64,000 nt of DNA from Pirellulales bacterium (GTDB lineage Bacteria > Planctomycetota > Planctomycetia > Pirellulales > JADZDJ01). The notes beneath the pieces were generated by a model that searched no databases, was not told the origin of the DNA, and saw only the letters and a list, made by a program, of their open reading frames with translations. Location: positions 280,958 through 344,957 of the forward strand of contig CAVRAW010000005.1 in the NCBI GenBank assembly GCA_963719205.1, read 5' to 3'. This document shows, in pieces, positions 1 through 64,000 of this stretch (position 1 is the stretch's first letter; each line of letters begins with the position of its first letter). A program made the position numbers and the translations under genes.

Positions 1-906
1 TCCAACGAACGCTGTCGGCTGCCGAACGATGCGATGCGAAAACCACCGGCGATCATCTCGCGTAGCAAATCCGCCTCCGAGCTCTCATCCCCTTCGTGCG
101 CGAACGTCACGATGTCGCCATCGATTTTTAGTTCCTGCACGTCCCCCCGCGCCGTCAGCCACAAACCCAATCCGTCCGCCCCGCCCAACACGCCGCACCT
201 GCACCCAGCTTTGATGCGGCAACTGCGCCTTGCGCTGAATCTCCGCCACCGTCCCCACCGCCACCATCCGCCCCTGCTCGATAATCCCCACCTCATCGCA
301 CATCTCCGCCAATTCCGTCAAAATGTGCGAACTGACCAAAATCGTTTTCCCCTCGGCTGCCAGCCGCCGAAACATCTCGCGCAGCTCAATCCGCGCCCGT
401 GGATCCAACCCCGCCGCCGGTTCGTCCAGCACCAGCACCGCCGGATCATGAATCATCGCCCGCCCCAAACACAGTCGCTGCTTCATCCCCTTCGATAGCC
501 CGCTGACCGCTTTCTCCGCCAAATCCTCCAGCCCTGTGAAATCCATCACGCGACTGATCGCCCGCCGCCGCTCGCTGCCGCGCAACTGGTAAGCACGCGC
601 AAAAAAATCCAGATACTCCGTCACATTCACATTCGGATACGTGCCGTAATAGTCCGGCATGAATCCCAATCGCCGCCGCACACGATCCGGATCATCCAGC
701 ACCGAAAACCCGTCCACAAACGCATCGCCCGTCTGCGGACAATCCAGCGTCGCCAAAATCCGCATCGTCGTCGTCTTGCCCGCTCCGTTGGGACCGATGT
801 ATCCAAACACCGTCCCGCGCGCAACCTCGAACGAAACATCGTCCACCGCCTTGGTGCTCCCAAAGTAGCGCCGCAGTCCACGCAATTCGATCATCGGAGA
901 ATTCAT
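1..906 (-). CDS. ABC transporter ATP-binding protein; runs off the left window edge; frame broken near 205
   Basis: ATG at 906. Walker A GPNGAGKTT, signature LSKGMKQRL, Walker B VLVLDEP. The ORF-track stop at 85 follows an RG-rich nonsense-looking tail. Shifting frame near 205 gives a typical C-terminal domain (VLGGADGLGLWLTARGDVQELKIDGDIVTFAHEGDESSEADLLREMIAGGFRIASF) that continues past position 1. Confidence 0.85.
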
Positions 907-987
907 AATGGTTAGCGTCGGCCGCCAGGCCGAACTACTATCGCGCACCTTCCATCCGCTTGCGGCGTAGCACATTGCTCCGAAGGG

Positions 988-3310
988 TCACCACTTCCCC
1001 ACCACCAAATGAAAACTCGTTTCTTCTCGCGCCCCCGGCGTTCCCAACTCCACTCCCGGCGATGTTTCCATCACCGCCACATACGAGCGCCGCAGCAGCT
1101 TGTTGTCCTTAAGTTGCTCGGCCGTCTCGCGAAACGTTCGTTCCAGCACGCTCGTGTTTTGCGATGCGTCCGGCAGCGCGGTCCCGCCGGATTGCCTTGG
1201 GTATGCCGGGCCGTAACGGTACGGGTATTGATAGCGGTAGCGCCCCCCCAAACCGAAAAAGCTGCGGTCGCCCGAACTGTAGGCCATACCCGGCGGCACT
1301 TCCGGTTGACTGGCCGTTAGCAATGCGCTGATCGGTCCGAACGCTTCATGCTGCGATGCCGCACGCGTTAGCGCAATCGATGCGTCCGGCGCCAAGTCGG
1401 CTCCCACAAAGCAACCCCCATTTTCGTCAACCAGCACTAATTGCTTAATTCGCGCGCCAAGTTGATTGACAATCTGCGGCGACTGCCCGGCTTCGACTGC
1501 TTTAACTTCCAGCATCGCTTTCGTCTTGCCGATTCGCGACGTGACAAATTGCGTTGGCGTACGCGCCTGCAACCACCCGTCGGCTAATCGCTGCTCCAAC
1601 GGCGACGCCTGGTCCGAAGCATTGGACCGCCGCCACTCAACGATTCGCAACGAACGCTTCTCCGCGCTACTTTCCGGCTGCGATTCCAACGGCAGTACGG
1701 CAGTGCCTTCAGAAAATCTCAATCCATCCCCCGGCGCCAAACCCGCGTAGTACGAAAGCCGCGCCCAGCAGGCGGCCTCACCGCTGCGCTGATCGATCGT
1801 AGTCACGCTGCGCGCCCGCACTCGCACTCCCAATCCATCGGCCAACAAAGCAACGGCGATCAGCGCGACTGTCACTACCAGCGCGCCGGCCGGCACCGTG
1901 ATCACCATCAAATTCAATTTGCCCCATCGCCTGAGCACGAAGTAATTCACCGGCCCGATGACGACCATAAACAGCGTGATGAACACCTGAAATTGCGAGA
2001 CCGGCGCCAGCCCCACGCCCGGAATCAAAAAATTCCAAAAGTCCGAATTCTCGCGCCAGCGACAAGCCCCAGCGCTGATGCCACTGCCAACGCTCCGGCC
2101 CCAACGTGTTCAACAGCCAGGTCCAATGGAATCCGCTCCCATCAAAGGTATTGTCTCCGCGGATGGCAACCACCATCCCCATTCCAAGTGGCCGCGTGAC
2201 GAACGGCGCGTCCGCCACATCCGCCGCTTCTCGCGGCGCCGATTCCGGAGGCGTCTCGTCCAATTCCTCCTTGCGCAGCGACTTCACGGGCAGATTCCAA
2301 CCGCGCTTCGACGGATCGCGCTCCTCCTCGACAGCCGTTCCATCGCTTTCAGCCATCCCAATCGTCTGCTCCAGTTGCGAAATTCTGTCCCAATCTTTTC
2401 CGGCCCCGTACACGACCAAATTCCCGCCGTTGCGCACCCAATCGCGGATCGCATTCCACTGGCCGGGATACTGCGTCGCCAAGTCTCGCAATCTCCCTCG
2501 CGAGCACAACACCAGGTCCACGCCGCTGTAATCGATCCACTGCGTCGGCAACTCGTCGATGCTGATGGCATCCTTCTGAGCAAACCCCTGGCTCGCCGCC
2601 GAAGACTGCAGCGCGGTTTTGGAATCGCCTTTGACAAACAATTGCTCCGGCGCACTGTCGCCGATCTGAATTTGCACCTGCGACTTCCGATTGTCATCGC
2701 CCAACGCCAGCACGACCGGCAGCGATCGATCGCCAATCTCCGTCCCGCTCCAGCTCGTCCAACCCGCTTTAGGACCGATCGAAAGTTGGTCCACGTATTC
2801 CTTGTCCTCAAACACATCCAGCTCGAACGATCCCCACGCCCCTTCCTGCGGCACAGAAATTGTCATCTGCGCCGCGCTGCTGCCGGCCGGAATCTCCAAA
2901 ATCTGGCTCACCTCCACGCTCGCTTTCTGCGTGTAGCCCATGCGCGGACGAAAACGAATTGTGAGCACGCGGTCGGCAATCACTGGTCCGGCGATGGATC
3001 GCGCCGCCACCCGCACCGGCCGATAGCCGAACGAATCGACCCAGGTGGTATCGATCGTCAGTTCCAATCCGGTGGCGTTCACCTGATTGGGCCCCAGCAT
3101 GGGCAGCGTGATTGCCCCGCCCGACGCCGCCCACGCAGACTGCCCTAGAGCCAGCGAACTGAACAACACCAGCCATCCGGCGATCAAAGTGTTCGTCGAG
3201 GACGGCGGCGCCTTAGATCGCAATCGCCCCAGCAGCCGCGCTGAATAGCCACGCCACGCCAAACAGCAGCGCGTAAACAGCAAACGCGATAACAATTGCC
3301 AACAGTCCAA
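988..3310 (-). CDS. hypothetical signal-peptide/membrane protein (~770 aa), frame broken near 2050
   Basis: Same-strand ORFs 1778..3310 and 988..2028 overlap by 250 nt. They join cleanly if one base is restored near 2050 (..LSLAR|ENSDFWNFLIPGVGL..). Signal-like segment LIAGWLVLFSSLALGQSAWA; TM helices in the C-terminal half (FITLFMVVIGPVNYFVL, VITVPAGALVVTVALIAVALLA). No family recognised and the start is uncertain. Confidence 0.5.
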
Positions 3311-7691: not shown

Positions 7692-10600
7692 TTCTTCACA
7701 ATCCGCAAATACAGTTGCGAAACGTCGTCGCCGACTTTGATTTCGCTCGCCTCGGCCCCCTCAATCGGCCCCGCTCTTAGAACAGTCGCCAGCGTTTCGC
7801 CGCGAATGTAATCGCCGAAATGGTCGATCGCGCGGCGAATCTCCGCCGACTCGCTTCCGATCCCCACCTCAATGCGGTCCGTATATTCACAATCCCGGTC
7901 TTTGCGGCAATTCTGAATCGCATGCACAATTTCCCGAGCCACTCCCTCGGTCACCAACTCCGGAGACAACTCCGTTGCCAAAACCACCACGCAGTCCTTG
8001 CCCTGCGCCGCCGCCCAGCCCGGCTTGGCCTGCAGGCGCACCTGCAAATCATTGCGGTCCAGCATTTCGCTGCTGCCGTCGTCCAACTTTAGCGAAACGC
8101 TCCCCGCTTTTTCCATTTCCGCAAGCAGCTTGCCGGCGTCCGACTTCGCCAATGCATTTTTCACCAGCGGCAACTTCTTGCCCAGCCGCGGTCCAAGCCG
8201 TTTCAAATCCGGCAGTACGGTATAAGTGATGTACTGCTCCGCCTTTTGCGTGAACTCCACATGTTTGACATTTAGCTCTTTACGCAACAGGTCGAAATGA
8301 TCCTCCAGCCATGCTTGTTGGCTTCGATCCGCCAGAATCACCTCCACCTTCCCCAGCGGCTGCCGCACCTTGAGCTTTGCCCCCATCCGTGCCGCCAGGC
8401 CCAGCGACGCAATCTCGCGCACCAGGTTCATCTGAATCGAAAGCTGCTCATCGATCGCTGCCCGATCCCCCGTGGGAAAATCGCACAGATGAACGCTTGT
8501 AGCGCTCATGGCTTCACCGCCTGCTGCTTGCTGCCTGCCGCCTGCCAGATTTTGCCACATCGCCTCCGCAATGAACGGCACAAACGGCGCAATGATTTTG
8601 CACGTCGTGATCAAACACTCGTACAGCGTCCAATAAGCGTCCAACTTGTCCGGATCGCGCTTGTCTTCCGCCCAAAACCGATCCCGGCTGCGCCGCACGT
8701 ACCAGTTCGAAAGCGCATCGACAAACTCGATGATCCGCTGCGCCGCCGCATAGTTGTCGTAAGCATCCATCCGCTCCACGACCGCCGCCGCCGTGCGATT
8801 CAATTCGCTCAAGATCCAGCGATCCAACTCCGCCCGCTCTTTGATTGGTCGAGCCGATTCGTCCCCCTGATTCTTGACTCCTGATCCCTGACTCCTGGGA
8901 TCAAATCCATCGATATTCGCGTAGATCACAAAAAAGCTGTACACATGCCACAGCCTTAACAAGAATTCCGGAATGCTGTCGCGGATCGCCCGCTCGCTAT
9001 AGCGGATCGTGGTCCACGGCGGCTGCGTGGCAAAAAAGTACCACCGCAACGCATCGGCGCCGTACTTGTCAAAAATCTCCGCAGGCTCGCGGTAATTCCG
9101 CTTGCTCTTCGCCATCTTCTGCCCGTCTTCGCCCAGCATCAGCCCCAGCACAATGCAATTGCGAAACGGCCGCGGAATCGGCTTGTCGAACACCAGCGTC
9201 GAAATCGCCAACTGGCTGTAAAACCACCCGCGCGTCTGATCGAGCGCCTCGCTAATGAAGTCGGCAGGAAACTGCTCATGAAATTTCCCGGCAGCGGCCG
9301 CGCGGCTGCCTTCCGTCGTTCCGCCTTCCGCCTTCCCCCTTCCGCCTTCCCCTTGATATCCCCACTGTGCAAACGGCATCGCCCCGCTGTCGTACCAACA
9401 GTCGATCACATCCGGCACGCGCCGCATCGTGCCGCCGCACTCGCACGAAAACAGGACAGCGTCGATATACGGCTTGTGAACTCTCAAATCGTCGATAAGC
9501 TTCGGATTTGCCTTCTTCGCCTTCTCCCACACTTCCGTTCCTGCAATTCCTGGCTTCCTAATTAATTCTTCGTAATTGCTGATTGCCGACTGCTGATTGC
9601 ACTTCTCGCATTGCCAGATGGGAAGCGGCGTGCCCCAAAATCGCTCCCGCGAAAGCGCCCAATCGACATTTGTCTCCAGAAAATTCCCGAACCGCCCTTC
9701 CTTGATATGGTCCGGCAGCCAGTTGATATGCCGATTATTCTCCAGCATCTGTTCCTTAAACTGGCTGGTTTTGATGAACCAGCTCCGTCGCGGATACTGA
9801 ATCAGCGGATCCTCCTCCGCCCGCCAGCAAAACGGATACTCGTGCCGATATTCTTCGCGATGAAACAACAACCCGCGCTGTTTCAAATCATGAATAATGT
9901 CCTTATCGCATTCCTTCACCCATCGCCCGCGGCAATACTCCGGCCCTTCATCTGTGAATTTGCCGTCCGGCGCTACGGAGCAAATCAGTTCCAAACCCGG
10001 GCCGTCTTCAAATCGACTGCGTTCATGGATCAGCACATCGAAATCGACTTCGCCAAACGCCGGCGCTTGATGCACTACCCCCGTGCCACTATCAATGGTG
10101 ACAAATCCGGCGCTGACCACGCGCCAAGCAATGTACTCCTTGCCATCGCCTTTTAATTGTCCCTGTGCGGACCCCAGCGAACGATAGTAATTGTCAAACG
10201 GCGGCACATACCGCAGCCCGATCAGTTTCTGTCCTTGAATCTTTTTCTCAACCTTGAATTCCCGCTTCACTTTCCCCGCGATCGCCTCCACTAGCGCGCT
10301 TGCAACAACTAACTTTTCCGTCGCGCCCGTCGCGTCGTTGTCGTCCACAACAACTGAATACTCCAACTCCGGATGCACCGCCGCAAACTGATTGCTCGGC
10401 AGCGTCCACGGCGTCGTCGTCCACACCAACAAACTCGCGCCGTCCAAACCCAATTCCTTTGTGCGCGCATCTGACACCAACGGAAACTTCACATACACGC
10501 TCGGGTCCGCCACCTCCCGGTAACCCAACCCCACCTCGCCGCTCGAAAGCGCCGTCCCCCCTGCGCCCACCACCAAACAATCTTGTGCCCCTGATACAAC

Positions 10601-11487: not shown

Positions 11488-14249
11488 ATGTATCCAGTCA
11501 AAAAGCAACCTAGTATTAGCATCGCTGATCAAGGCACCCTCTTGAAGTTTCTACAGGCGCACGCAACTGCATTTCTGCGGCTAATTGTATGCCTGGCGGC
11601 GCCGGCAGCATCCGTCGCCCTCTGCACTCGTTCGGCGCTGGCTGATTACGAAGTCCCCAATCCCGCTTACGATGCGCCCGCCGGTTATTACAATTCGGCC
11701 ACCGGCACGGGAACCACGCTGCGCGGCAATCTGCATACCATCATTTCCAGCGGCTTCAACACCTACAACTATGGCGATGCCCGCACCATCCTGCCGATTC
11801 TCTGGGAAGATCCCAACGACTCCTCGAGAATGATCCTGGTTTACAACAACCAGTCGATCGTCAAACCCAACCCCAGTGGGACCAACCCGGCGGGCCTCCC
11901 GGGTTGGGACGGTGGCACCACTTGGAACCGCGAACACCTCTGGCCTCAGTCGCTGTTGGGGGTCTCGGTTTCAAACTCCTACAAAGGCCCGGCCAGCGAT
12001 CTCTTTGAACTGGCCCCCTGTAACCCCTCGGTCAACAGCTCCCGCGGGAATAATGACTACGGCACGACCGACGCCAGTGGCACGTACTTCAACCACGGCA
12101 CCAATCCGCATCCCTTCTACTTTTTCCCCGGCGATGCACAAAAGGGCGATGTCGCCCGCTCCATCTTTTACATGGCCACGCGCTACTACGGTGGCACCGG
12201 CATCCAGAACTTGAGCGTCCTCGACGGGTTTCCCAACGATACCATGGTCAACACTTACTCGATCGGCGATCGCCAGTCCCTGCTGCGATGGAATTACGCC
12301 GACGGCGTCGATAATTTTGAACGTCGAAAAAACGACCTGATCTACGACGACTATCAGCACAACCGCAATCCTTACATCGACCATCCCGAGTATGTTTGGG
12401 CCATCTTCGGCGATAGCGACAACAACTCACAAATTTCCGTCGCCACGCCCGCCGCCGACGGCTCGTCTTCCACCACGGCAAATCTCGGCAACGTGATCGT
12501 CGGCACTGCCTTCGGCACCGCCAATGTTACCGTCAGCAAGTCGGGTCACACGCCAACCACCTTCGACATTACAACTTCAGGAAACGCCGTCACCACGGGC
12601 AGTGGTTTGCTTGCAGGCACCGGGCACCCGTTCAATTACGACAGTCAATCGAAGGGCATGACCGTCGGCTGGACCGGTTCAACAGCCACTGCCGGTGCGA
12701 AATCCGGGACGATCACCATCGACAACACCGACCTGACTACCGCCGGTACCGGCCAAGGCTCCGCCGACGGCAACGACACGGTGACCGTCACCGGCAACGT
12801 CTACGATCACGCCAACGCCAGCTTTACCAGTCCCAGCGATACCAATTCCACGACGGTCGATGTGGGCATCTACAAAACCGGCACGGAACGCAATCCGCCG
12901 GCTTTGACATCTACAACCTCGTCAATACCGCCAGCTTCACGGCCGGGCTCCAATATGTCAGTCAGTCCGGCAGCGGCGACACCGCCCAGTTGTCTTCCAA
13001 CGTCGCCACCGCTTTCACCAGCGTTTTGGCGGCAGGTAGCAACATCGGGCTGAATGCGAACCTCAGCACCGCATCCATCGGCAGTTTCTCCGCCGCGTAT
13101 ACGCTCACGGTCGGCGACGATGCCAGCATTACCGGCCACACCAACCAGAACGTTACGCTCAATCTTGCCGGCCGCGTGCGCAACAACGGCACTATCTACT
13201 GGACAGCCGCCGGAGATTCCGCTTGGGATCTGAGTCATACGAAAACGAATTGGACCGACTTGTCTTTGAGCGACGTTTATCTCGAGGGCGATACTGTCGT
13301 TTTCAACGACGCTCAGAACCCCTCGGGCAGCCGCTCGGTGACGTTGAACAACTCCGTCACGCCGGCTTCGGTCTCCGTGAATCACAGCACCGGCAGCGAT
13401 TACACCATCAGCGGCTCAGGCGATATCGGCGGAAGCGGAGGGCTTACCAAAGCCGGTAGCGGTAAGTTCACATTGTCTACAAACAACACCTACAGCGGCG
13501 GCACCACGGTGAACGATGGCACGCTGGTGGTCGGTCACGTAAACGCCTTGGGCACCGGCGGCCTGGCGATTAACAGCACCGCCACCACGCAGTTGCAGGC
13601 CGGCTTGAGCGGGCCGGTGCAATTGCCCACCTTGTCGATCGCCGGCGGCTCCAGTCCGACCGCCACATTGGACATCACGGACAACAACATGATCGTCCAC
13701 AACGGCGATCTGTCCGCCTTAACCGCACAGGCCAAGGCCGGGCTCAGCGGCGGTTTCGACTGGAATGGCACTGGCCTCACCAGCACCACGGCACGTGACG
13801 ATTCCAATTTCGCCACCGCCGTGGGTGTGATCCAGAACGACGATGGCGGTGGCGGCGCCTTCTACAGCAGCTGGCCCGCCGGGGCCGATTCCGGTGGCGC
13901 CGTAAGCGTCAGCCAAACCGACGTCCTGATCAAGTACACCTACTACGGCGATGCCGACTTGGACGGCGTGGTGACCTCCGGTCAGGACTACGACTTGTGG
14001 CTGTTCGGCAAGAGCGGCGGCGGTACGGGCTGGGAATTCGGCGACTTCGACTACGACGGATCGATTACCGGCGCCAACGACTACGACCTCTGGCTGTACG
14101 GCAAGTCGGTCAGCGCCGGCAACCCGTTGGGCGGTGGCGGCGGCGTGCAGCCGGTCCCCGAGCCCAGCACGTTGCTCTTGGCCGCACTGGGTCTGGCCGG
14201 AGTGGCGGCCTTTGCCCGTCGGCGGCGGGCCGAAACGGCGCCGATTTAG
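11488..14249 (+). CDS. secreted endonuclease I-family nuclease fused to autotransporter-associated beta-strand (PATR) repeats, dockerin-like repeats and a PEP-CTERM anchor; frame broken near 12897
   Basis: Signal peptide. Endonuclease I motifs WNREHLWPQS, SDLFELAPCNPSVNSSRGNNDYG and GDVARSIFYMATRY. PATR-like GSGGLTKAGSGKFTLSTNNTYSGGTTVNDGTLVV. Two DxDxDG repeats (GDADLDGVVT.., GDFDYDGSIT..). C-terminal VPEPSTLLLAALGLAGVAAFARRRR. ORFs 11488..13053 and 12990..14249 join as ..GTERN(P)|AGFDIYNLVNTASF. Confidence 0.8.
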
Positions 14250-25211: not shown

Positions 25212-26332
25212 CTACTCCGCCGCCGCCGCCTTGGCATAAGAGCCCAGAATATTCAGCCGCACCGCCCGCCGCGCCAGCGCCTCCGTCGCCCGCACCACTT
25301 TCTTGTCCTGCTGATGTCCTTCCATTTCGACGAAGAACAAATAGCCCCCCTCAGGCCGCGCAATCGGGAACGATTCAATCCAAGTCAGATTCAACTTATT
25401 GCGCTTGAATATATTCAGCGCCTCAGCCAGCGACCCCGGCTTGTGCACGACCTCGAACATCAGCGCCGTCTTGTCGCGCCCCGTGCGCGGACCCGAATGC
25501 TGCCCAATCACGGCAAACCGCGTCAGGTTCCCCTGCTGATCCTCAATGTTCTCCGCCAAAACGCTCAGCCCGTGATGCGTCGCCGCCTGCACGCTGGCGA
25601 TCGCCGCCGCCCCTGGCTTCTCCTTCGCCAACTGCGCCGCCGTCGAAGTGCTGGTCACCTCGATCGTCCGCGCCTGCGGCAAATGTCGCGTCAACCAGTT
25701 GCGACATTGCGACAATGCCTGCGGCCGACTGTAAACTTCCTGCACTTCACTCCGCTGGCACTGCCCCAACAAGCAATGATGAATCGGCAAATTCACCTCG
25801 GCACAAATCTGCACCGGCAGCCGCGTGAACATGTCCAGCGTGTCCGCAATTCGCCCATCCGTGCTATTCTCGATCGGCACCAGCCCATAGTCGCAGTGCC
25901 CGCGATTCACTTCCTCGAACACCGCCCCGATGCTCGCCACCGGCACATATTCCACCGTCTGGCCAAACCGCTGAATGGCCGCCAAATGACTATAGGTATA
26001 CGCCGGCCCGAGATGGGCGATGCGAAGCATCTTTTCCAAAGCCCGCGAGCCGCTGATGATCTCCCGAAACGCCGCCTGCAAACATTGGTTCGACAGCGGC
26101 CCATGATTGTGCCCCGTCACCCGCCCCAGCACTTCATCCTCGCGCACCGGATCGTACGCCCGCTGACCATTCTGCTCTTTTACCTTCCCAATCTGGTGCG
26201 CGAGCTTCGCCCGCTCATTCATCCGCGAAACCAACTCCCGGTCGATCTTGTCTATCTTCGGCGCAGCCCCGCCACGGTCGGAGTTCGAGCAGACGTTTTG
26301 GAGGCCGCCTTCGGCGGCTTACGTTTGGCCAT
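25212..26332 (-). CDS. pheA: bifunctional chorismate mutase/prephenate dehydratase, frame broken near 26260
   Basis: The prephenate dehydratase core carries LGPAYTYSH, ENSTDG and LTRFAVIG, followed by an ACT domain. The chorismate mutase helix 1 (..LRPKIDKIDRELVSRMNERAKLA) is complete only if the ATG at 26332 (MAKRKPPKAASK..) is joined across a missing C near 26260. Confidence 0.88.
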
Positions 26333-47226: not shown

Positions 47227-48149
47227 GTGGCTTGCTTATCGTTCGTAAAGTTTGCAGTGGCCGATGGCGTTGCCACGATTACTGTCGACCGACCCGATGT
47301 GCTCAATAAATTGAACCCGGTTGTTGTCCATCAGCTGCAGCAAGCGTTCGACCAAGCGTCTGCTGATCCAGAGGTGCGGGGAATTGTGCTGGCGGGCGAG
47401 GGAAAGGCGTTCATGGTCGGCGTCGATGTCGAATTCTTCATTCGCTGCATCGAGTCGGACGATATCGCGCGGATTGTAAAGTTCACCGAAGCAGGTCACC
47501 AACTGCTCAACGCAATTGATCGGTCGGCCAAGCCGGTGGTGGCGGCGCCAACGGCGCGGCATTGGGGGCGGGCCTTGAATTGGCCTTGGCCTGCGACTGG
47601 ATTGTGGCTTCGACGAGCGCGAGTTTCGGCTTTCCGGAGACAAGCTTGGGAATCTATCCCGCCCTGGGTGGAACACAAAGATGCCCGCGCACGATCAGCG
47701 TCGGATTGGCGAAATGGTTGATCCTTACTGGAAAGACGCTCTCAGCGGCCGATGCGGCGAAAATCGGGTTAGTCGACCGCGTCGTCGACGCCACGCAATT
47801 GGACGAAGTGGGCCGCGGGCTTGCGCTGGGTCGGTTGGCAAGCCAGAGGCCGACGACCGTACCAAACGAACTAACTGCGATCGAGCGATTCTTCAACAGA
47901 AGCCGCGCTGTCGACCTGCATGCGGGGACGGCCGATTCAGAAGGCAGTCCTGTACTTGTCCGCGCAATGCGATCGGTCGGCGCCAAGTCCCCCGTAGCTC
48001 TCGTACTAGCCGAGTGGCTGATTGAAGAGGGAAGTCGGCGGTCACTTGAAGAGGGATTGCAGATGGAGATCGACCACCTTCGGGACGTTTTCTCCACGGC
48101 CGAGGCCTATATCGGGCTGATGTCCTGCTTGCGGAGGGGGGCGTGGTAG
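47227..48149 (+). CDS. enoyl-CoA hydratase/isomerase (crotonase) family protein, frame broken near 47549
   Basis: VATITVDRPDVLNKL, LAGEGKAFMVGVD, then after the shift NGAALGAGLELALACDW and FGFPETSLGIYPALGGTQR. Confidence 0.8.
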
Positions 48150-48512
48150 TCGTCGTCAGTTGGTTGGAAAAGTCCAAGTATTCAGCCCTTCTTATCCAAC
48201 CGTCGCCGCTTGACAAGCCCATCCCAGGGTCGATAATCCGGGGAGATATTAAGGACGGTAAGTCAGGTTGCATGCGAAGGAAAGGCATCTCGCAAGGCAT
48301 TCAGTTCGGATTGGCTGGCCCTCGCGACGCGTGCAGAGAGTACGGAAATCCGTGGCCTGTGCGGCCATGATATCTCGGCAACCATCCGTCGCATTTCGTT
48401 CGATGGCCTGCTCTCACGTTGCTTGGCCGATTCGGGCCAGTCGCCGTCGACACAGGCCGAGTACCGATGCACCGTAACCTGTTCGGACAGACGGTGCCTT
48501 TTTTGTGCCTAT

Positions 48513-49634
48513 ATGCAGTTTGGATTCTGTTACATTCCGGACTACCGCGCGAGCCAGCATGGCACGTACCAATCGTGGTACGAACGACTACTGCATGAAT
48601 GGAAGACAGCCGACGATTTGGGATATGACGCTTTATGGATCGCGGAACATCGCTTCCCTGGATATGGCTTCTGCTCGACACCCGTCGTGGCCCAGGCGAT
48701 TGCCGGCCGGACGGAACGGATTCGTATTGGTACCGCAGTGGTGCTGCTGCCACAACGGCATCCCGTACTGACGGCCGAGGATTGGGCGGCCGTGGATCTA
48801 CTCTCCGGCGGCCGCCTTAATTTCGGTATTGGACGCGGCATTTTTGCCTATGACTTCGCGACCGTTGGCGTGAGATCATCGGAATCGTGCGCGCTTCGAG
48901 GAGGCCTGGGAGATCATCCGCCGACTTTGGACCGAACAGCGGGTGACGTACCAGGGCAAATTCTGGTCGTTTATCGATCATTCGCTCGAGCCGCAGCCGC
49001 TACAAAAGCCAACGCCGCCCACATTCGTGGGTTGCATCGCGACGCCGGAATCGTATCGCTGGGCCGGCGCCAACGGCATGCACCTGATTGTGGCGCCATT
49101 TCTGCTCAAATCAACCGAACAGCAGCGGGAGCTGCTCGACATTTACCGCGACTCGCTCGCTGAGGCTGGCTACGAGCCGGCCAGCTTTCAGGTCATTGCC
49201 AACTACCATTTAGCGCTCGTGTCAAGTGAGGGCGAACTGCGGGACGCGGAACAATACCTTTTTCGGTACCTGGACTTTCTTGCGGACGCCGAGTCGAAGC
49301 AGAAATCGTATTTGGACAAGCAACAATACGCAGCCTACGCACCGGCCGAAGCTCGGTCGCGGGATGTAGAAGATGTGCGTGCGCATTGCGCGGTCGTCGG
49401 AACAGCGCAACAGTGCATCGATCGAATCGCCGAATTGGCAGAAGCGTGCGGGCTTTCCGGCTGGATGTTTCACATCAATTATGGCGGCGTACCGCACGAA
49501 CGTGTCATCGAACAGATGCATTTGTTCGCCGAGGATGTGATGCCGACTTTCGCGAGTCCACACGAATTGGCTGCCTCAACGGGTGGGGCGTTAGGCAGGA
49601 CCCGGTCGACGAGCGGTTCGGTTGCGACCATTGA
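48513..49634 (+). CDS. LLM-class (luciferase-like) flavin-dependent oxidoreductase, frame broken near 48873; 3' boundary ambiguous
   Basis: MQFGFCYIP.., LGYDALWIAEHRF and LLSGGRLNFGIGRG, then after removal of one base DHRNRARFEEAWEIIRRLWTEQRVTYQGKFW..GTAQQCIDRIAELAEACG..AEDVMPTF. As given, the frame reads on into the next domain without a stop. Confidence 0.8.
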
Positions 49635-49635
49635 A

Positions 49636-50751: not shown

Positions 50752-50767
50752 TGAAGGGGCCATCCTG

Positions 50768-52006: not shown

Positions 52007-52015
52007 GTGTTTGTC

Positions 52016-53473: not shown

Positions 53474-53513
53474 CGAGATATCTTTCAGACCCTGCCACGT
53501 CGTGCGGATCAAT

Positions 53514-54362
53514 ATGCAACTGGGCAATTGGCAACTTGATACAGTCAGCGGGGGGACCTTTTGGCTGGACGGCGGCGTGATGTTCGGGGTCGTGCCCAAG
53601 TCGCTCTGGCAAGACATCGCAGCGCCGGACCCAATGAACCGCATCAAGTGCGCGAATAACTGCGTGTTGGCACGCGATGGTCGCCACACCGTGCTCATTG
53701 ATACTGGCTACGGTGGCAAGTTCTCGCCACTCGAGCGCAGGTTCTATGTCATGGAATCGGGTGAACCACTCTTGGCAAGCCTGGCCGCGTTGGGCGTGGC
53801 GGCGGAGGAGATCGACACGGTCGTCCTTAGCCATCTTCATTTCGACCACGTTGGCGGAGCGACTCGGCTTGATACACAGGGGCGGCGCGTCCCTGTCTTC
53901 ACTCGGGCGCGTCATTTCGTGAGCCGTTGCGAATGGGAGGACGCCACAAGCGGGAGTTCCGAACTCGCGTCCGCATATCCGCTGGATGACATTCTTCCGT
54001 TACGCGAAGCAGGTTTGATCAGGGTTGTAGAGGATGGACAAGAACTGCTGCCTGGGCTCCGCGGCCGCGTGACGGGGGGGCACACGCGTGGGCACATGTC
54101 GGTGTTTTTCGAATCCGGTGGTCAAACGACTGCCTATCTTGGAGATATTTGCCCGACGACCGCACATCTCAGGCGAATGTGGCATCTCGCGTATGACACC
54201 CACCCGTTGGATACTCGGCGGCGTAAGCCGGCACTGCTGAGCCAGGCAGCAGATGAGGGCTGCTGGGTCATCTGGAACCACGACCCGCGCGTGGCGGTCA
54301 GCCGAGTTGCCCGACATCCAAAGCGCGAATTTGTGGCGATCGATCGACGCGAGGCACTATAA
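53514..54362 (+). CDS. MBL-fold metallo-hydrolase
   Basis: ATG at 53514. Metal-binding motif LSHLHFDHVGG, with downstream GGHTRGH and WNHD. Confidence 0.85.
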   Translation: MQLGNWQLDTVSGGTFWLDGGVMFGVVPKSLWQDIAAPDPMNRIKCANNCVLARDGRHTVLIDTGYGGKFSPLERRFYVMESGEPLLASLAALGVAAEEIDTVVLSHLHFDHVGGATRLDTQGRRVPVFTRARHFVSRCEWEDATSGSSELASAYPLDDILPLREAGLIRVVEDGQELLPGLRGRVTGGHTRGHMSVFFESGGQTTAYLGDICPTTAHLRRMWHLAYDTHPLDTRRRKPALLSQAADEGCWVIWNHDPRVAVSRVARHPKREFVAIDRREAL

Positions 54363-54537
54363 GGTGCATCACTAAACCAACTAATCAGCAGTGTCTAGGT
54401 AGTTTTTGCAGTCTGTCTATTTGATCTATGTTGACTGCCTAAGGATTAGTCTTAGAATCAGGGCCGTTAGCTTTGAAGGCTTTGGGTAAGGTGGGGCTAT
54501 CAGGTAGCGTCTCTCGTCGATCGGCTGGGGGAACCGC

Positions 54538-56012
54538 ATGTCGCAACGGAAGTACACATTGCTGACTGGTGCAACGGGACTAGTAGGCGGTTATTTGCTC
54601 CGCGATTTTCTGAAGGCGGAAGTTGCGGTTGCCGTCCTGCGCGCTCGAACCACATGGCGTCCGCGGGGGGGCGGATCGACGCAGTTATGCGGCGTTGGGA
54701 GGACTTGGCCGGTTGCTTTTTGCCACGGCCTGTGGTGCTCGAAGGCGATCTTCGGGATCCTCATTTAGGGCTCAATGATCGCGACGCTGCTTGGGTCGCG
54801 GACAACTGTGATGCGGCCGTTCACAATGCAGCCAGCATGACGTTCCGCGAAGACAGCCACGGAGAGCCGTTCCGCACGAACGTCGACGGAATACGGAACT
54901 TGCTGGTAATTTGCGAACAGGCGGAGATCAGGAAATTCCATCATGTTTCGACGGCATACGTGTGCGGTCTTCGGGATAGTCTGATCTTTGAGGATGAACT
55001 GGACGTCGGCCAGCAAAACGGCAACGTTTACGAGATCAGCAAGTTGACCGCCGAGAAGATGGTGCGTGGGGCCGGATTTCTTAAGGAGTTGACAGTCTAT
55101 CGGCCCGCCAGCGTCGTTGGAGACTCGCAGACCGGTTACACCACGTCAACGCACGGCTTCTATTTGCCGCTGCAATTGGCCTATGCCATGGCCGACAAGG
55201 TTCCGACCCAGCTGATGGGCGACCGGTTCTTTCGGTTGCTTGGGCTGCAGGGAAACGAGGGCAAGAATCTGGTGCCGGTTGACTGGCTGTCAGCAGCGAT
55301 TGTGTACGTCGTGACTCACTCGGAGCACCATGGGAAGACGTATCACCTCACCAATCCATGCCCGGTGACGGTGCAGTGCATCCAGGAAGTGGTGCAAGAA
55401 GCCATTGAGAAGTATTCGTCGCGCCGCTTCGTCGGATCTCTGAGCGAGGAAGAGATTTCCCAATACGAGGAATTGTTTCGAAACTATATGGAGGTTTATC
55501 GGTCGCACTGGCGGGATGATCCGATCTTCGACCGTACAAACAGCGATGCTGCGCTCGCTCATTTGCCATGTCCACCGATTGATCATGATATGCTCCTGCG
55601 AATCGCGGGCTACCCGGTGCAGCAACGATTCATCTTGAAGCGCACGGCACCGACAGAGACTGGATTTCGGCCCCAAACTCATTTGCAGCGGTTTGCCCGC
55701 TGCGCCAGTCGGACAAATGGCAGCGCCGAGACAGAACAGAGCATCGGTATTAACATCACGGGCCGCGGTGGCGGACAGTGGCGAATCATTGTTCGCAATA
55801 ATCAGGTCGTGGGCATTGAATTGGGCCTGGGTTCCTTGGATCAGGCACAATTCTACATGAACTCAGACACATTTTTATCGCTTGTCGAAGGGCGATGTTC
55901 GGTTGACCAGTCGCTATGCGCTGGACGCATCTTCATCGAAGGCGGTAATGGTGGCATCGGCGGCCACCAGGAACACGTCAGGATTCTCGAGCACGTCGTC
56001 TCCTCTCGTTGA
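54538..56012 (+). CDS. thioester reductase-type SDR (NAD_binding_4 / fatty acyl reductase-like) fused to a C-terminal SCP2 lipid-binding domain, frame broken near 54642
   Basis: LLTGATGLVGGYLL (Rossmann), HNAASM, HHVSTAYVCG and YEISK (YxxxK). The C-terminal INITGRGGGQWRIIVRNNQVVGIELG..DTFLSLVEGRCSVDQSLCAGRIFIEGGNG is SCP2-like. ORFs 54538..54768 and 54654..56012 join at ..AVAVLRA|SNHMASAGGRIDAV. Confidence 0.8.
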
Positions 56013-56134
56013 GAAAATCGGCCGAACGGCAGAAAGCATTCTGCCGCGACACCAAGCGATGGCTGAACAACAAAGAGTTCAGACGGCTTGGATGCGCGAA
56101 TGATGAATGTGAAAGTCACGACGGTTCACAAGTT

Positions 56135-59100: not shown

Positions 59101-60584
59101 GCGCCGATTGGTGAAGAATTGGCCGCGGCCGACGCAATCCTTGGTTCGTCCAGAAGCAAATTCAGAATCTGTCGGCTGGGAGCTGCGACGCCGGACGAAT
59201 TAGACGCCAAAATCAAAGAGTCGCTAGGGGATTGCGCCGCAGTATTTGCGGCTGGCGAGTTCGCTCCGTTCGCCCCTGCCGATCCGTGCGCCTGGCCATC
59301 GTGGCCGACAGTGTGGAAATGCTGTCCCGGAAGTTGCAATCGGCCGCAAAGCAGTGGCGAAATCCAGATGCGGTGCCGGTATTGGAACAGCAGGGTTGCT
59401 TCTATCGGACGACTGGGGTGCGGCAACCGAGGGTGGCATTTCTATTCCCGGGACAAGGGTCGCACTATCACGGAATGCTTCGCGAGCTTGTTCGGGACGT
59501 GCCGGCTGCCGCTGCTGCAATGCGCGCGATGGACGCGGTGATGATGCAGCACGGCTTGCAGACGTTTGGGCAAATGGCCTGGGAGAATCCGAACGAACTG
59601 GGCAGCGACATTTGGGTGACACAGGTCGTAATGTTGCTGGCCGATTTGATTGTCCATGCGGCCATTATGGATCTGGGCGTGCGACCGGACTTGATTGCCG
59701 GCCACAGCTACGGCGAATTGGCGGCGATAACCGCTGGCACCTCATGGGACCTTGAGACAGCCATTACCGCGGCCAGAGCACGCTACGAGAGTATCGAAGC
59801 CACTCCTAGCGCCCGCGGTTTCATGCTGGCCACTGATGCCGGACCGCAACAGATCGAGCAATTGGCAGCCCTGCTGTCCAATCCAGTTTATGTTGCCAAT
59901 ATCAATGCGCCGGATCAAGCGGTCGTTGGAGGTCGCATCGAAGGTTTGAAGGAACTGGCTGGGTTACTGGAATCGCGAGGCCAAGTCGCCCAGATACTCT
60001 CGGTGCCCTGCCCCTATCACACGCCGCTGATGGAGGGAGTCGGCGCTTTGTTCAAGCGAACGCTGGATGCACTGTCGATCCACCCTCCGCGTGTGCCAAT
60101 GCTTTCGACGGTGACCAACCGCTACGTAGCCGAACCGGACGAGATTCGCTCAAACCTCGCCGCTCAACTCACAACGCCAGTGCGTTATTTAGAACTGGTA
60201 CAGCGCATTGCCGATGAACAATACACGGTGTTCGTAGAAGTCGGACCACAACAAGCGCTGACAAGGCTCAACCGTCGAATTCTGGAAGGTCGCGAAGTGG
60301 CAGGGATAATCGCTTGTGACAACCCGAAGCGAGCCGGATTGGAGCAACTACTGCAGGTGAGAGCTTTGCTTGAGTGCGTGGGAGGGCTGCCGGCGCCATC
60401 GGCGGCGCAACCGGTCCACATAACTGCAAAGCCTGCGGCAACCCCCGAAGCAATCCGATTGAAAAAGGGAAGCATTACCCACATCGATGCGACGGAGCGG
60501 CGCCGCCAAAAGATGCGACAAGCGGCGACAAAAGTGTCCTCAACCGCCGGTTCCGAAAACGGATGCAGTCACCAGCGATTATGA
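56135..60584 (+). CDS. type I PKS / PUFA-synthase-like subunit A: KS - inactive KS (CLF-like) - acyltransferase; frame broken 4 times
   Basis: KS1 carries VAIIGMACRLPGA, active-site VNSACASSL, EAHATSTSLGD and KANIGHALESAG. KS0 carries IAIVGMGCIFPGA, but LDSGYTSAATAL (Cys to Tyr) and ELDGTGLPTSD (His to Asp). AT carries FLFPGQGSHY, GHSYGE and PYHTPLM. Shifts lie at 56557-56590, and near 57098, 58142 and 59284. The stop overlaps the next ATG (ATGA at 60581-60584). Confidence 0.88.
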
Positions 60585-63500
60585 CGCAATCGCATGGCTC
60601 AAAGTCGCTTGTTGCACGTACGGATTCCCAACCGGCGGCCAGAACATCAATGCCCGCCGGCCGGCCTGCGCCGGATTCTTTGCCACCTGCGCGACTTGCG
60701 CCTCGAGATGCCGGTGGGGCTGGGCCGCCGCCGAGGTTGGCGCCGGCTCCCAAATCGTCCGCCGTGCTTGCGGCAACTGGAATACCGGAGCGGGCTGAGA
60801 ATTGGTCGGGCGCCTCGGACGCCGACGTACACGAGCCGCACCAATCGAAAGAGCAGAACACAGCCGAGTTGGAGCAGTTTTTGATTAACTTCGTGGTGGA
60901 GCAGACCGGTTATCCGCCGGAGGTCGTGGAGTTGGATGCGGATCTGGAGGCGGACTTGGGCATCGACAGCATCAAGAAGGCGCAAATGTTCGGCGAGCTG
61001 CGTGAGTACTTCGACGTCACGCCCACGGACAACCTGACGCTGGATGATTTTCCGACATTGCGGCACATCGTGAATTTCCTGGCCGCCGCCCCGCAAAAAG
61101 CTGCACCGCAAAAAACGGCCGCAACAGCAGTCGCGGCGCCTGCTCCGCAGGCTCCGCAGCCTGCTTCGCCACCCGCAGTTCATGCCGTGTACGCGCCGGT
61201 TGCTCGCCGGACTGGCGAGTCTGTCCCGGCGAGCCGGCCCACGCCAGCGGCCGCGCCGAACGTCGACACAGCCGAGTTGGAGCAGTTTTTGATCAACTTC
61301 GTGGTGGAGCAGACCGGTTATCCGCCGGAGGTCGTGGAGTTGGATGCGGATCTGGAAGCGGACTTGGGCATCGACAGCATCAAGAAGGCGCAAATGTTCG
61401 GCGAGCTGCGTGAGTACTTCGACGTCACGCCCACGGACAACCTGACGCTGGATGACTTTCCGACATTGCGGCACATCGTGAATTTCCTGGCCGCCGCCCC
61501 GCAAAAAGCTGCACCGCAAAAAACGGCCGCAACAGCAGTCGCGGCGCCTGCTCCGCAGGCTCCGCAGCCTGCTTCGCCACCCGCAGTTCATGCCGTGTCC
61601 GCGCCGGTTGCTCGCCGGACTGGCGAGTCTGTCCCGGCGAGCCGGCCCACGCCAGCGGCCGCGCCCAACGTCGACACAGCCGAGTTGGAGCAGTTTTTGA
61701 TCAACTTCGTGGTGGAGCAGACCGGTTATCCACCGGAGGTCGTGGAGTTGGATGCGGATCTGGAGGCGGACTTGGGCATCGACAGCATCAAGAAGGCGCA
61801 AATGTTCGGCGAGCTGCGTGAGTACTTCGACGTCACGCCCACGGACAACCTGACGCTGGATGACTTTCCGACATTGCGGCACATCGTGAATTTCCTGGCC
61901 GCCGCCCCGCAAAAAGGATCGGCTATGCCGGTGCCGTTGCCTGCTGAAAGGAAGGATTCAGCGGCGGGAACTGCTGTGTCATCCGCGGATAGCCTGGCCG
62001 CTCGGGCGAACATCACCGTCGGTGCCGTCGCGGCTACAGAGCCCAGGGGCCTCACAAACGTCGACGTGCTATACCTGCGAGGATCTTCCTACGAGATGGG
62101 CTACCAACAGGGTATCGAAAAAAAGGCGGAAATTCGGCGCATTCTGCGGCGACTTGTCGACCTCACGGACGGAGACTGGAGCGAACTGCCGATTCCGCCT
62201 GCCGCACTGGAGCAACCGGAGCGGTTCTTTTCCGCCGATGAGCTTGAGGAATTGCGTGGGCTGGCAGACGCCGTTGAGGTTCCACAATCCAATTTACAGG
62301 CGCTGAATCTGGCGTTTCGCGGCGACCTGTCAGGAAATTGTGCCCAGGTGGGCATTGCTCCAAACAGCCGCAGCGCGGCAAGCGTTTTGCACGGCTTCGT
62401 TGGCGACCTCTCATTGCCGCCGGCGCTCGTGGAAATGTTATGTCCGTTCATCGCAGTGCGCGAACCGGCTCATGGCTGGGCCTGTGCGACAGTGAGTTTT
62501 CCGGGAATGGCAGGCAGTCTTGTGGGCGTGAATGGCAACGGGCTAGCTGCGTCGCTTGGCGCTCTTTTGAATGGGCAGGATCGATCGAGCGGCCCCGTTC
62601 ATGTCGGTCCGAGCTTACGAGTCGAAGATGTGCTGCATCGTGACGGAACGATTACTCAGGCCAAAGCGAGTTTGCAGGCAAGTCGCTTACCACAGGGCTG
62701 GGTGGGACTTCTCAGCCGTTCGGGCGAAGGACGTATGTGCGTCGTTGAGCACGACGGATCAGAAATTGCGGCGCTGGAACGCGACGACCAACTATTTGCC
62801 ACGAATCACTGTCTTGTGCGCCGGAATGCATCCCCGGCACCAGCACGATCGACGGAGCGATTAGCCTGGTTGCAGCAGCGGCTGAGCGGACCGCGTGTTC
62901 CGAACAACGCGGCCGAATTGCTCGGGGCATTGGGAGAGTTGCCATCGCAGGCATCAATGCGAATTGTGGTCGTCGTCGACGCAGCGGGGGGCGATCTCTT
63001 GTTGCAGCATAATTCAACTCAAGAGCGGATTCACGTGGCGCACTTTTGCCCTGTCACCCCGCCGGGGACGTCGAAATCGCGCTCGCGGGCAATACCACGA
63101 TTGGCGACGTGGAAAACCCAGAGTGCGAAAGCCAAGATCTTCACTACGACGTGAATGAGGAAGGCCAGTACTTACGCTTTACGCTGCGCATGCGACCGTT
63201 CCCGTGGGAGACAAAGCCGGCCGAGTTTCCAAATTGGAAAGGGGCTGCTGCAATCCACGGCAATGGGGCAATGGCCGAGGCCCTGCAGCGCCGCTTGATT
63301 GCCGGCGGTGCAACCGTAGTTCGATTGCACGAATCGGATTCGCCAGAGGCGGCCGTGGCTGAATTCGAGCGCCTCTCACGGTTCCACGATCGCACACTTG
63401 TTCCTCACCTCCCTTCGCGACGAACAGCGGTTGGAACGTATCGATTCTGCTGATTGGAATCGACTCGTCGAGCGTCAGCTCCAGGTGCCGTATTTCCTCT

Positions 63501-64000
63501 GTCAGCGATTTTTTCAGTTGGCGGGCGACGCCCGACGGCTCGACGACTGTAGCGTGGTCGCGCTGGTCGACCTCGGCGGAGATTTCGGCTTCTCCGGGAA
63601 TGTGGCGACCCCCGAATCGGGCTTTCTGACGGGGCTGATGAAGGAACTTTACCTGGAACACTCGATCGTGCGTGGCTTCAAGCACGTCCGCTGCAAAGCG
63701 ATCGATGCGCCCCGCGGGGAAGAGCCCGACGTGCTGGCGGCCAATATCTGTCGCGAGCTCGCGGGTGGGACCAACGACTACGAGGTCGCATTCGTCGAGG
63801 GTCGGCGGTATGTGCAGGTGGCCCTGCCTGCGGCGGCAAAACTCGAGCCACACAGTGCAGTCCGGCCGGGAGGTACCTGGGTAGTGACCGGCGGCGCCCG
63901 GGGGATTACGGCCGAGTGTGCTTTTGAACTAGGCCGTCGATTCGGATTGAAGTTGCACCTGATCGGCAGGTCGCGGCTGGCCAGTATCGACCCGTCGTGG
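60581..64000 (+). CDS. type I PKS / PUFA-synthase-like subunit B: 3 tandem ACPs - C45/Ntn-hydrolase (IAT-like acyltransferase) domain - ketoreductase; partial at the right edge; frame broken twice
   Basis: Three copies of ELEQFLINFVVEQTGYPPEVVELDADLEADLGIDSIKKAQMFGELREYF (Ser in DSI). LRGSSYEMGYQQG...SGNCAQVG...FPGMAGSLVGVNGNGLAASL...FATNH is peptidase-C45/AAT-like. KR structural part HGNGAMAEALQRRLIAGGATVV and catalytic Rossmann GTWVVTGGARGITAECAF..LHLIGRS. Shifts lie near 63050 and 63385, and the ORF is open at 64000. Confidence 0.85.
60861..61915 (+). repeat. 408-bp tandem DNA repeat (~2.6 copies) encoding the ACP units plus Ala/Pro linkers
   Basis: Units begin at 60861, 61269 and 61677, an exact 408-nt period. 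Only a handful of substitutions separate the copies (e.g. gattaac/gatcaac, gatgatttt/gatgacttt, tacgcg/tccgcg). Confidence 0.9.

Follow-up and report, generated by a model that had tools for sequence, protein, structure and literature searches.

One-base breaks at GCGC motifs in a 64-kb Pirellulales contig window are almost certainly consensus errors rather than gene decay

Gene content of the window

We analysed a stretch of 64,000 nucleotides from a Pirellulales bacterium (NCBI GenBank assembly GCA_963719205.1, contig CAVRAW010000005.1, positions 280,958 to 344,957 of the forward strand), hereafter called the window, in which many genes are interrupted by single-base breaks of the reading frame. 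The broken genes are real in the sequence file, and the breaks are almost certainly one-base consensus errors of long-read sequencing, not gene decay. The window belongs to a 717,590-bp contig and has a G+C content of 59%; no tRNA genes were found within its 64 kb. The source organism is an uncultured planctomycete of the Pirellulales. Its DnaK has a best match at 82% identity among species representatives, with top matches that are all Pirellulales bins, and its isoleucyl-tRNA synthetase (IleRS), once repaired, has a best match at 79% identity among 5.8 billion proteins. The genes of the window are as follows, lengths being given in amino acids (aa).

1-39 kb: ABC ATPase; ~820-aa gene with a weak DUF4350 match; GT2 glycosyltransferase; PMT_2/TPR protein; GNAT acetyltransferase
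1-39 kb, continued: purN and ileS; PATR/PEP-CTERM surface protein; aspartic-protease-like protein; purine nucleoside phosphorylase
1-39 kb, continued: argJ and argC; coaB and coaC; rpoZ and gmk; yicC-like gene; secG, tpiA and pheA
1-39 kb, continued: dnaK and clpB; low-GC insert; TPR protein
39.9-64 kb: two hypothetical genes (A and B); MacB-type ABC exporter; enoyl-CoA hydratase (ECH)
39.9-64 kb, continued: luciferase-like monooxygenase (LLM) fused to an O-methyltransferase (OMT); FAD oxidoreductase; acyl-AMP ligase
39.9-64 kb, continued: metallo-beta-lactamase-fold protein; thioester reductase; large KS-CLF-AT-ACPx3 polyketide synthase (PKS), then KR-type domains

Searches of Pfam, NCBIfam and PADLOC gave no match for 39.9-43.9 kb or for 31.5-33.9 kb.

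Location of the breaks

Three independent lines of evidence were used to locate the breaks: a frame-switching dynamic programme trained ab initio on the window's own codon usage, profiles and homologues that cross from one frame to another, and nucleotide alignment to two relatives. A screen of open reading frames (ORFs) by GC3 and codon position separated poorly after 39 kb, and the dynamic programme was used instead. The first relative, hereafter the sister, is ENA ERZ25039463 contig_63694 (165,897 bp; loci L084, L086, L087 and L088), which is collinear with window 1-60434 at 94-98% identity; relative to it, the window carries specific inserts at 31537-33959 and ~36516-39094. The second relative is ERZ25039539 contig_488 (4.25 Mb; locus L085), with 87-92% identity to window 2.5-26 kb.

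The dynamic programme made direct same-strand switches at 193/194, 2052, 3214, 4646, 10576, 12894 and 18679, and further ones at 46045, 47540, 48871, 57087 and 58132, while the nucleotide alignments to relatives located the exact indel at nearly every site. Its switches at 19442 (argJ/argC), 22225 (rpoZ/gmk), 24329 (secG/tpiA) and 50733 (LLM-OMT/FAD-oxidoreductase) were discarded as ordinary gene boundaries. Also set aside were gaps at 42036, 44543, 46812, 49070, 53900, 55424-56028 and 59808, which are the sister's errors, profiles or homologues backing the frame of the window. At 44543 (2 nt) the window frame keeps a conserved VTHD loop, and the 2-nt gap at 42036 makes gene A of the sister overlap the beginning of gene B, so that neither is an error of the window.

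A first-pass annotation, made from the letters and their ORFs, had listed 29 sites where a protein continues in another frame. We confirmed 26 of these through homologue frame changes or one-base gaps lying within ~50 nt of the listed position (most within 15 nt or less). Of the remaining three, 205 proved to be an ambiguous pair of indels, 63050 is probable, and 32025 found no support. Beyond that list we confirmed breaks at 3243, 19463 and ~60500, and found probable or ambiguous ones at 44651, 6423/6432 and 50751. The sites in the first 39 kb are listed below; where the first-pass position differs, it stands in parentheses.

194..231 (205), minus strand: C-terminal part of the ABC ATPase; indel pair, +1 at 194 and -1 at 231; ambiguous
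2043..2058 (2050), minus strand: ~820-aa gene with weak DUF4350 match; frameshift
3243, minus strand: ~820-aa DUF4350-like gene; extra base, absent from L085 and L087; new site
4644 (4645), plus strand: PMT_2/TPR gene; base missing in the context G-GCGCG; gap against L086, which has an intact 604-aa ORF
5255 (5254), plus strand: PMT_2/TPR gene; base missing; window GGCGCAG-CGCC against GGCGCAGGCGCC in L086
6423..6432, plus strand: last codons of the TPR gene; compensating pair (-1, +1), seen against L086 only; ambiguous
10556..10562, minus strand: ileS; C6 on the plus strand where C7 restores the frame; GCGC flanks the run
12884..12885 (12897), plus strand: PATR/PEP-CTERM surface protein; base missing; gap against L085 (intact, 905 aa) and L086
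18682..18683, minus strand: argJ; extra base, absent from L085 (intact ArgJ, 395 aa) and L086
19463, minus strand: argC; extra base within the stop codon, absent from both relatives; new site
21217 (21216), minus strand: coaB; extra base immediately before GCGC, absent from L085 (CoaB, 219 aa) and L086
23963 (23965), minus strand: secG; extra base, absent from both relatives
26260..26261, minus strand: pheA; base missing; window GCGC-CGAAG against GCGCGCGAAG in the sister

In the ~820-aa gene, homologues P0283-P0286 (846-874 aa) span 3446 to 991 across three window frames. They align from 3238 to 2048 in one frame and from ~2076 to 991 in another, with one-base gaps at 2043 and 2056 and a GCGCGC run at 2053-2058; upstream, they change frame between 3261 and 3238, and the extra base at 3243 lies 1 nt from GCGC. 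The two gaps at 194 and 231 lie 37 nt apart in the alignment to L087, both touch GCGC, and both ORFs stay open, which makes it ambiguous whether the window or the sister is the erroneous contig. At the surface-protein gene, a 1012-aa ORF of L081 covers two window frames; the site at 12884 is the sole confirmed one without a nearby GCGC. The site at 32025 (plus strand) lies within the low-GC insert 31537-33959 that is lacking in the sister, has no GCGC nearby, and neither of its ORF pieces has a family or homologue match.

For ileS, TIGR00392 positions 3-178 and 181-856 fall in two frames, and the repaired IleRS aligns over 100% of its length to homologues (79% identity). The sister (L086) has C7 at the run, whereas contig_488 (L085) has C6 with an identical 207-aa N-terminal fragment, its ileS lying in three pieces. 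Homologues of argJ from L012 and L016 fall in two window frames. ArgC has 353 aa in the window, including a 17-aa C-terminal extension, against 336 aa in relatives, and in four of them, including JGI and Logan short-read assemblies, the protein ends in ETTALL followed by the stop at 336 aa. In secG the last ~37 codons are altered and the ORF is extended, the SecG profile covering residues 51-116 of a 225-aa open frame, against 145 aa in L085. The start codon and N-terminus of pheA lie in another frame, and homology is already seen upstream of the first start codon in frame.

Likewise, the first ~19 codons of coaB, including the start, are out of frame, with homology from 21216 and the first in-frame start codon at 21213. 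A three-way nucleotide comparison ruled out that 21216 is the natural boundary of coaC and coaB. As an observation in its own right, coaC (~192 aa) and coaB (~219 aa) are separate adjacent genes in the window (20644-21856, minus strand), as they are in other Pirellulales; this contrasts with the fused coaBC of most bacteria, and in the P0004 contig three genes lie between the two.

The sites beyond 39 kb are the following.

40298 (40250), minus strand: gene B (hypothetical, ~705 aa); base missing; gap against the sister (P0244, 650 aa)
41418 (41415), minus strand: gene B; base missing; P0242 frame change and sister gap
41523 (41500), minus strand: gene B; base missing; P0242 frame change and sister gap
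42288 (42322), minus strand: gene A (hypothetical, ~630 aa); base missing; sister ORF continuous
42447 (42445), minus strand: gene A; extra base; sister alignment
43576 (43590), minus strand: gene A; base missing; sister has CCGCGCCC
44651, plus strand: near the 3' end of the ABC ATPase; probable extra base; in-frame fusion to the permease; new site
45229 (45245), plus strand: MacB-type permease; base missing; homologues and sister gap
45464 (45455), plus strand: permease; extra base; homologues and sister gap
46029 (46040), plus strand: permease; extra base; homologues and sister gap
47545..47550 (47549), plus strand: ECH; base missing at GGCGCC; ECH_1 positions 4-94 and 96-195 in two frames
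48880..48886 (48873), plus strand: LLM; frame 3 to frame 1 in a GCGCGC run; two-frame profile match
50751, plus strand: LLM-OMT stop and FAD-oxidoreductase start; one-base difference from the sister; ambiguous
54639..54641 (54642), plus strand: thioester reductase; base missing at GCGCGC; gap against the sister
56579 (56570), plus strand: PKS (KS-CLF-AT-ACP); extra base; homologue frame change and sister gap
57096 (57098), plus strand: PKS; base missing, GGCGCCCC read as GGCGCCC; homologue and sister gap
58136 (58142), plus strand: PKS; base missing, TGCGCAG read as T-CGCAG; homologue and sister gap
59285 (59284), plus strand: PKS, CLF-AT linker; base missing; gap against the sister's 1,271-aa ORF
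60497..60530, plus strand: PKS, AT to ACP; frame 3 to frame 2; P0122 homologue; new site
63013..63151 (63050), plus strand: after the ACP/C45-like region; frame 2 to frame 1; probable; GCGC at 63038 and 63079
63369..63395 (63385), plus strand: KR-domain region; frame 1 to frame 2; confirmed; GCGC at 63369

Gene B is covered by the 708-aa homologue P0242 over four pieces in three frames, from 41934 to 39886, with one switch between 40302 and 40281. The sister reads TGCGCT at 42288 in gene A; the deletion in the window therefore destroys a GCGC. With the base at 44651 removed, the ABC ATPase would end in DGRIANSASTPDAPGVFTVARQ and a stop at ~239 aa, and in relatives ATPase and permease are separate genes. 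The permease of relatives is one protein of 835-838 aa with two PCD-FtsX units, and an 835-aa homologue (679 aa of it in locus L083) reads across three window frames. The ECH break is common to the sister, there being no gap against L084, in which the ECH ORF is likewise cut short (181 aa). In the LLM gene, Bac_luciferase positions 11-122 and 122-310 fall in two frames, and the break at 48886 is +1 or -2; the sister is broken there too, with a different length. The LLM-OMT fusion itself is present in window and sister alike. The downstream FAD-oxidoreductase has 412 aa in the window against 421 aa in the sister. For the thioester reductase, the NAD_binding_4 match begins at profile position 54, and the L082 homologue aligns with residues 19-48 in frame 1 and residues 50-503 in frame 3.

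In the PKS, a single homologue of 1,757-1,764 aa passes through window frames 2, 3, 2, 1, 3 and 2, and profiles of two ketosynthase domains and KS_C also continue across frames. Around 59285, P0121 aligns with residues 661-1029 in frame 1 and 1031-1486 in frame 3; further on, P0122 aligns with residues 1039-1472 in frame 3 up to 60530 and residues 1481-1747 in frame 2 from 60497. The sole GCGC in 60497-60530, at 60500, pinpoints this AT/ACP break, and every break in the PKS has GCGC at or beside it. Near 63050, one L083 ORF holds the ACP repeats together with a segment that aligns to frame 1 at 63136-63375, L083 being itself error-prone. At 63385 the KR ORF of L083 aligns with residues 52-118 in frame 1 and 126-326 in frame 2.

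Two further features of the PKS (56135-63151 and beyond) stand apart from the breaks. After the ACPs the same frame enters a C45-proenzyme-like acyltransferase domain (NF040521, 82.8 bits, slightly under the cut-off of 85), whereas the PKS proteins of the closest relatives (1,757-1,787 aa) end after the ACPs. Collinearity with the sister stops abruptly at window 60434 / L088 19702, inside the PKS at the AT/ACP junction, and beyond that point the sister carries unrelated ORFs, including FG-GAP repeats. Either the two contigs differ in structure here, or one of them contains a chimeric join.

The coding sequence is otherwise intact

The genes broken include essential or single-copy ones, as judged within the window (ileS, argJ, argC, coaB, secG and pheA). 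In the sister the frame stays open across the core sites and across 15 of the 17 sites confirmed at 40-60 kb, and contig_488 has intact argJ, secG, coaB and 905-aa surface-protein genes. The sister has breaks of its own, in other places: its dnaK and clpB lie in so many pieces that the gene caller chose antisense ORFs, and its pheA breaks at 26024, not at 26260.

When the window was read in the frames of its relatives, there were no in-frame stops in 3,569 codons at 39.9-51.8 kb, nor in 4,046 codons of the core. The ratio of nonsynonymous to synonymous differences (pN/pS) was 0.32 at 39.9-51.8 kb and 0.21 in the core, and 0.34-0.38 in three genes that carry three breaks each. All confirmed events involve one base, save the LLM break (+1 or -2); deletions outnumber insertions by roughly two to one. 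The coding sequence is thus otherwise intact and under purifying selection. Because essential genes are hit, relatives read through, stops are absent while pN/pS is low, and the events are of one base, the breaks are not biology.

Other long-read Pirellulales contigs show similar fragmentation. L083 (ERZ25039463 contig_113000) and L037 (MFD04944.bin.2.58) have split ORFs for the AMP-ligase, lactamase-fold protein, reductase, KR, DnaK and ClpB. In short-read relatives, such as the P0121 and P0122 contigs, those genes are intact, except for one in-frame stop in the lactamase-fold gene of L082. At L084 18946-20596 in the sister, two ORFs with a Pfam NAD-GH label lie antisense to the frameshift-shredded dnaK; these NAD-GH matches are spurious family hits arising from the same error process.

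Breaks coincide with GCGC

The breaks share a sequence context. GCGC lies within the 15-nt context (longer allele) of 31 out of 35 sites, compared with 10.6% of random 15-mers (p = 2e-26), and the next-best tetramers at break sites are overlaps of GCGC. Alignment placed 23 sites, 15 of which lie inside or directly adjoin a GCGC of the window sequence, as do only 5.7% of random positions; in two of the three apparent exceptions the GCGC had been destroyed by the deletion. In the 98.2%-identical block at 40740-60434, counting both contigs, 26 out of 29 gap columns fall within GCGC +/-1, against 5.8% of columns. Mismatches in the same block are also enriched near GCGC (48 out of 335, 2.5-fold over the 5.8% expected), although these cannot be told apart from real differences. 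Of the 609 GCGC sites in the window, about 5% are affected, and the subset differs among the three contigs. A small number recur in two or more contigs, namely the C7 run of ileS with its flanking GCGC, the ECH GGCGCC and the LLM GCGCGC. The indels are thus contig-specific and tied to GCGC, and because the GCGC subsets differ while a few sites recur, a context-dependent systematic error fits.

Break density differs along the window

Confirmed breaks occur at 0.28/kb in 1-39 kb and at 0.72/kb in 39-64 kb. The counts are 11 over 39 kb and 18 over 25 kb, and the ratio of 2.55 bears out the ~2.5-fold higher density that the first-pass annotation had proposed for 39-64 kb. Binomial p for the excess was 0.010 by length, 0.013 after subtraction of untestable stretches and 0.0035 by GCGC count. 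Smaller intervals gave the following densities.

1-6.5 kb: ~1 break per kb
6.5-39 kb: ~0.2 breaks per kb
40-46 kb: ~1.8 breaks per kb
46-64 kb: ~0.55 breaks per kb

The 2.5-fold excess is real but patchy, with dense stretches at 1-6.5, 40-46 and 54-60.5 kb. The failure rate per GCGC is ~3% before 39 kb and 8-10% after. The window is error-rich at 1-8 and 40-60 kb, where the sister has hardly any of the random indels that abound in it elsewhere, and clean at 8-22 and 28-40 kb, where the sister is noisy. By this partition, which was chosen after seeing the data, 30 out of 35 events fall in 57% of the compared length (p = 0.0003). Similarity to the sister (mismatch <2%) predicts the error density of the window weakly; the sister's local lack of random errors predicts it better.

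The excess may stem from mixed-strain pile-ups or from a lower effective read depth, an explanation that corresponds to the lower coverage offered by the first-pass annotation and that we consider plausible but somewhat short of even odds. We propose it because a second contig, 94-99.8% identical to this region, exists in a public assembly. The reciprocal pattern of errors would be expected if, in the stretches where the window is error-rich, reads of two co-occurring strains were shared or split between both contigs: the rarer contig would gain depth, and the window contig would be left with less uniquely mapped depth or a less pure pile-up.

Origin of the breaks

Taking these results together, the window very probably derives from a long-read-only assembly, likely Oxford Nanopore with a Flye-type assembler and light polishing, that carries ~30-35 one-base indels, nearly all of them at GCGC and probably linked to methylation. 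Both the platform and the part played by methylation are inferences. The contig naming, the joint deposit of assembly and bins, and an error rate of ~5e-4 per base fit nanopore bins produced by Flye and Medaka. GCGC is a classic target of type II cytosine methyltransferases. The organism would methylate GCGC, and the modified base would distort the pore signal; basecaller and polisher might then miscount bases at GCGC, and at a few per cent of the sites the wrong length would win in the consensus. Each length error would shift the frame, and genes would appear as pieces in different frames. Public Pirellulales bins have been made with Flye and one Medaka round on R10.4.1 data, and the soil long-read bins of Microflora Danica include many Pirellulales (PMC12313526). 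Nanopore errors that base modification causes at specific motifs have been described (PMC10687267, PMC11610573, PMC11610603).

Several observations weigh against this account. Two breaks are common to independent contigs (the ileS C6 with contig_488, ECH with the sister); a systematic error explains such sharing, but a real mutation would do so too. The published methylation-linked errors are mostly substitutions, and those seen here are indels (PMC10687267, PMC11610573, PMC11610603). No methyltransferase gene was seen among the annotated ORFs of the window. GCGC density was rejected as the cause of the regional excess (10.0/kb before 39 kb, 8.7/kb after), which leaves that excess unexplained by the motif, and the coverage explanation is put forward tentatively, its sole basis being the post hoc link to sister-clean stretches.

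The same errors might arise at GCGC from sequence context without methylation, the assembler or polisher miscounting short alternating G/C such as GCGC. All the evidence for an artefact serves this explanation equally, overlapping GCGCG/CGCGC runs occur in 11 of 31 contexts, and the substitution bias of published methylation errors speaks for it as well. However, CGCG is equally repetitive and yet is never hit unless GCGC is also present; because no break site has CGCG without GCGC, motif specificity is favoured over repeat structure. Errors at a few per cent of GCGC sites, varying between contigs, look like a noisy signal, and the standing of GCGC as a methyltransferase target also speaks against a purely repeat-driven error, which we regard as unlikely. 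Homopolymers were the context suggested for several sites by the first-pass annotation, and generic length errors of long-read or flow-based sequencing could be read from the ileS break in a C6/C7 run, 57096 in C3/C4 and 6423 in G3/G4. This suggestion failed: in the 15-nt contexts a run of at least 4 lies near only 4 of 31 sites and one of at least 5 at a single site (ileS), almost all of the ~190 runs of at least 5 in the window are unaffected, and GCGC dominates. Homopolymers as the main cause are refuted, and generic length errors are a very improbable explanation for the set.

Explanations in which the breaks are true sequence fare worse. Recent pseudogenisation, in the form of a decaying accessory cluster at 39-64 kb over a lower error background, would agree with the 2.55-fold break density after 39 kb, the dispensable PKS/ABC transporter locus and the ECH break common to the sister. 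But the sister, 97.5-98.2% identical, is intact at the 15 of 17 confirmed 40-60 kb sites, and essential genes carry the same GCGC signature. There is neither a nonsense codon in the 3,569 codons nor any multi-base deletion inside genes, pN/pS stands at 0.32, and breaks are just as dense in the core's first 6.5 kb. Nor is this a strain-specific island, since the sister and more distant Pirellulales share the gene order of the cluster from 40 kb to at least 60 kb, and short-read relatives have it intact. The idea of island decay, which the first-pass annotation had raised, is therefore highly improbable, whereas its proposal that most breaks are assembly or basecalling indels stands, as essential genes are hit, relatives read through, nonsense codons are absent, pN/pS is 0.2-0.3 and the motif context is shared. 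Comparison with close relatives gave the same answer, the sister reading through almost every break.

Alternatively, some breaks could be true and be decoded by programmed ribosomal frameshifting, as at the ileS heptamer G GGG GGA. This site has the formal X XXY YYZ shape that would suit -1 slippage, and the six-base run with the same 207-aa fragment recurs in window and contig_488. The sister, however, has seven bases and a continuous frame, all 120 of the 120 listed IleRS homologues are single full-length proteins, and the site is flanked by GCGC like other error sites; no conserved stimulatory structure was seen, and none was sought. For every gene tested, relatives encode single continuous ORFs. 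Recoding thus has only a slender chance of being right, and it is just as remote that a few breaks are true sequence (the candidates being the ileS six-base run and the ECH break), in which case IleRS would be made by -1 frameshifting.

Other features of the window

Divergence from the sister is mosaic, with mismatches of 0.15-1.5% at 2-6, 22-24 and 46-60 kb and of 5-10% at 10-14 kb, which suggests strain recombination or mosaic metagenome contigs. The 2.4-kb insert at 31537-33959 (G+C 49-53%), missing from the sister, has no coding signal under the genome's codon model. Its ORF at 31512-32042 shows a PD...EVK nuclease-like motif by eye, and the ORF at 32255-33151 has hypothetical homologues, 24-29% identical, on Bacillus, Planktothrix and Vibrio plasmids; the insert is probably recently acquired foreign DNA. 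Also missing from the sister is the gene of an 818-aa PMT-like/TPR protein (36554-39010; region 36516-39094), which has a paralogue at 4484-6434.

GC skew on the plus strand is ~-0.2 up to ~34.5 kb regardless of gene strand, dnaK and clpB (plus strand) being C-rich too, and turns to 0 to +0.14 past ~35-36 kb. No cluster of DnaA boxes was found near this switch, the whole window holding 5 near-matches against 6.3 expected. The switch could be a replication origin, a terminus or a rearrangement boundary.

Significance and comparison with known systems

The pattern of breaks is almost certainly not a biological feature, and the genes are almost certainly intact in the cell. It carries little biological weight; its main value is as a warning for annotation and as a recipe for targeted correction. 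As the first-pass annotation had foreseen, ORF-based annotation of this region is fragmented. At least 17 of ~50 window genes are mis-called in public protein sets. For instance, the ~705-aa protein of gene B appears as pieces of 425 aa (P0241, the database protein for ORF 40179-41456) and 98 aa (P0243), against 650-708 aa in relatives. The apparent fusion of ABC ATPase and permease and the C-terminal extension of ArgC are likewise artefacts. Completeness, pseudogene counts and gene-cluster predictions will be distorted for this bin and for sister bins of the same study. Motif-specific errors make targeted correction possible and give a hint as to which motif the lineage methylates. A GCGC-specific DNA methyltransferase in this uncultured lineage may be the biological by-product, a milder one than ileS recoding and much more likely. 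This indel-type error mode is under-described for nanopore-only bins.

With its many frameshifted genes, the window resembles the pseudogene-rich genomes of host-restricted bacteria. Such genomes, shaped by reductive evolution, show nonsense mutations, larger deletions, relaxed selection and spared essential genes. Unlike them, the window shows none of these four traits. To a small extent it behaves like assemblies with homopolymer indels from nanopore, 454 or Ion Torrent sequencing, in which one-base, coverage-dependent errors split genes and polishing is needed; unlike in those, a long homopolymer is involved only at ileS, and GCGC is dominant (PMC9262707, PMC8103633). In the main, the breaks behave like modification-mediated nanopore errors. 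The published cases are mostly substitutions at GCAGC, GCTGG or RACG, whereas the window has single-base indels at GCGC, for which methylation is the probable cause. As in those cases, the errors recur at one short lineage-specific motif, depend on strain and assembly, are not cured by depth alone, and leave a consensus of ~Q30-35 (PMC10687267, PMC11610573, PMC11610603).

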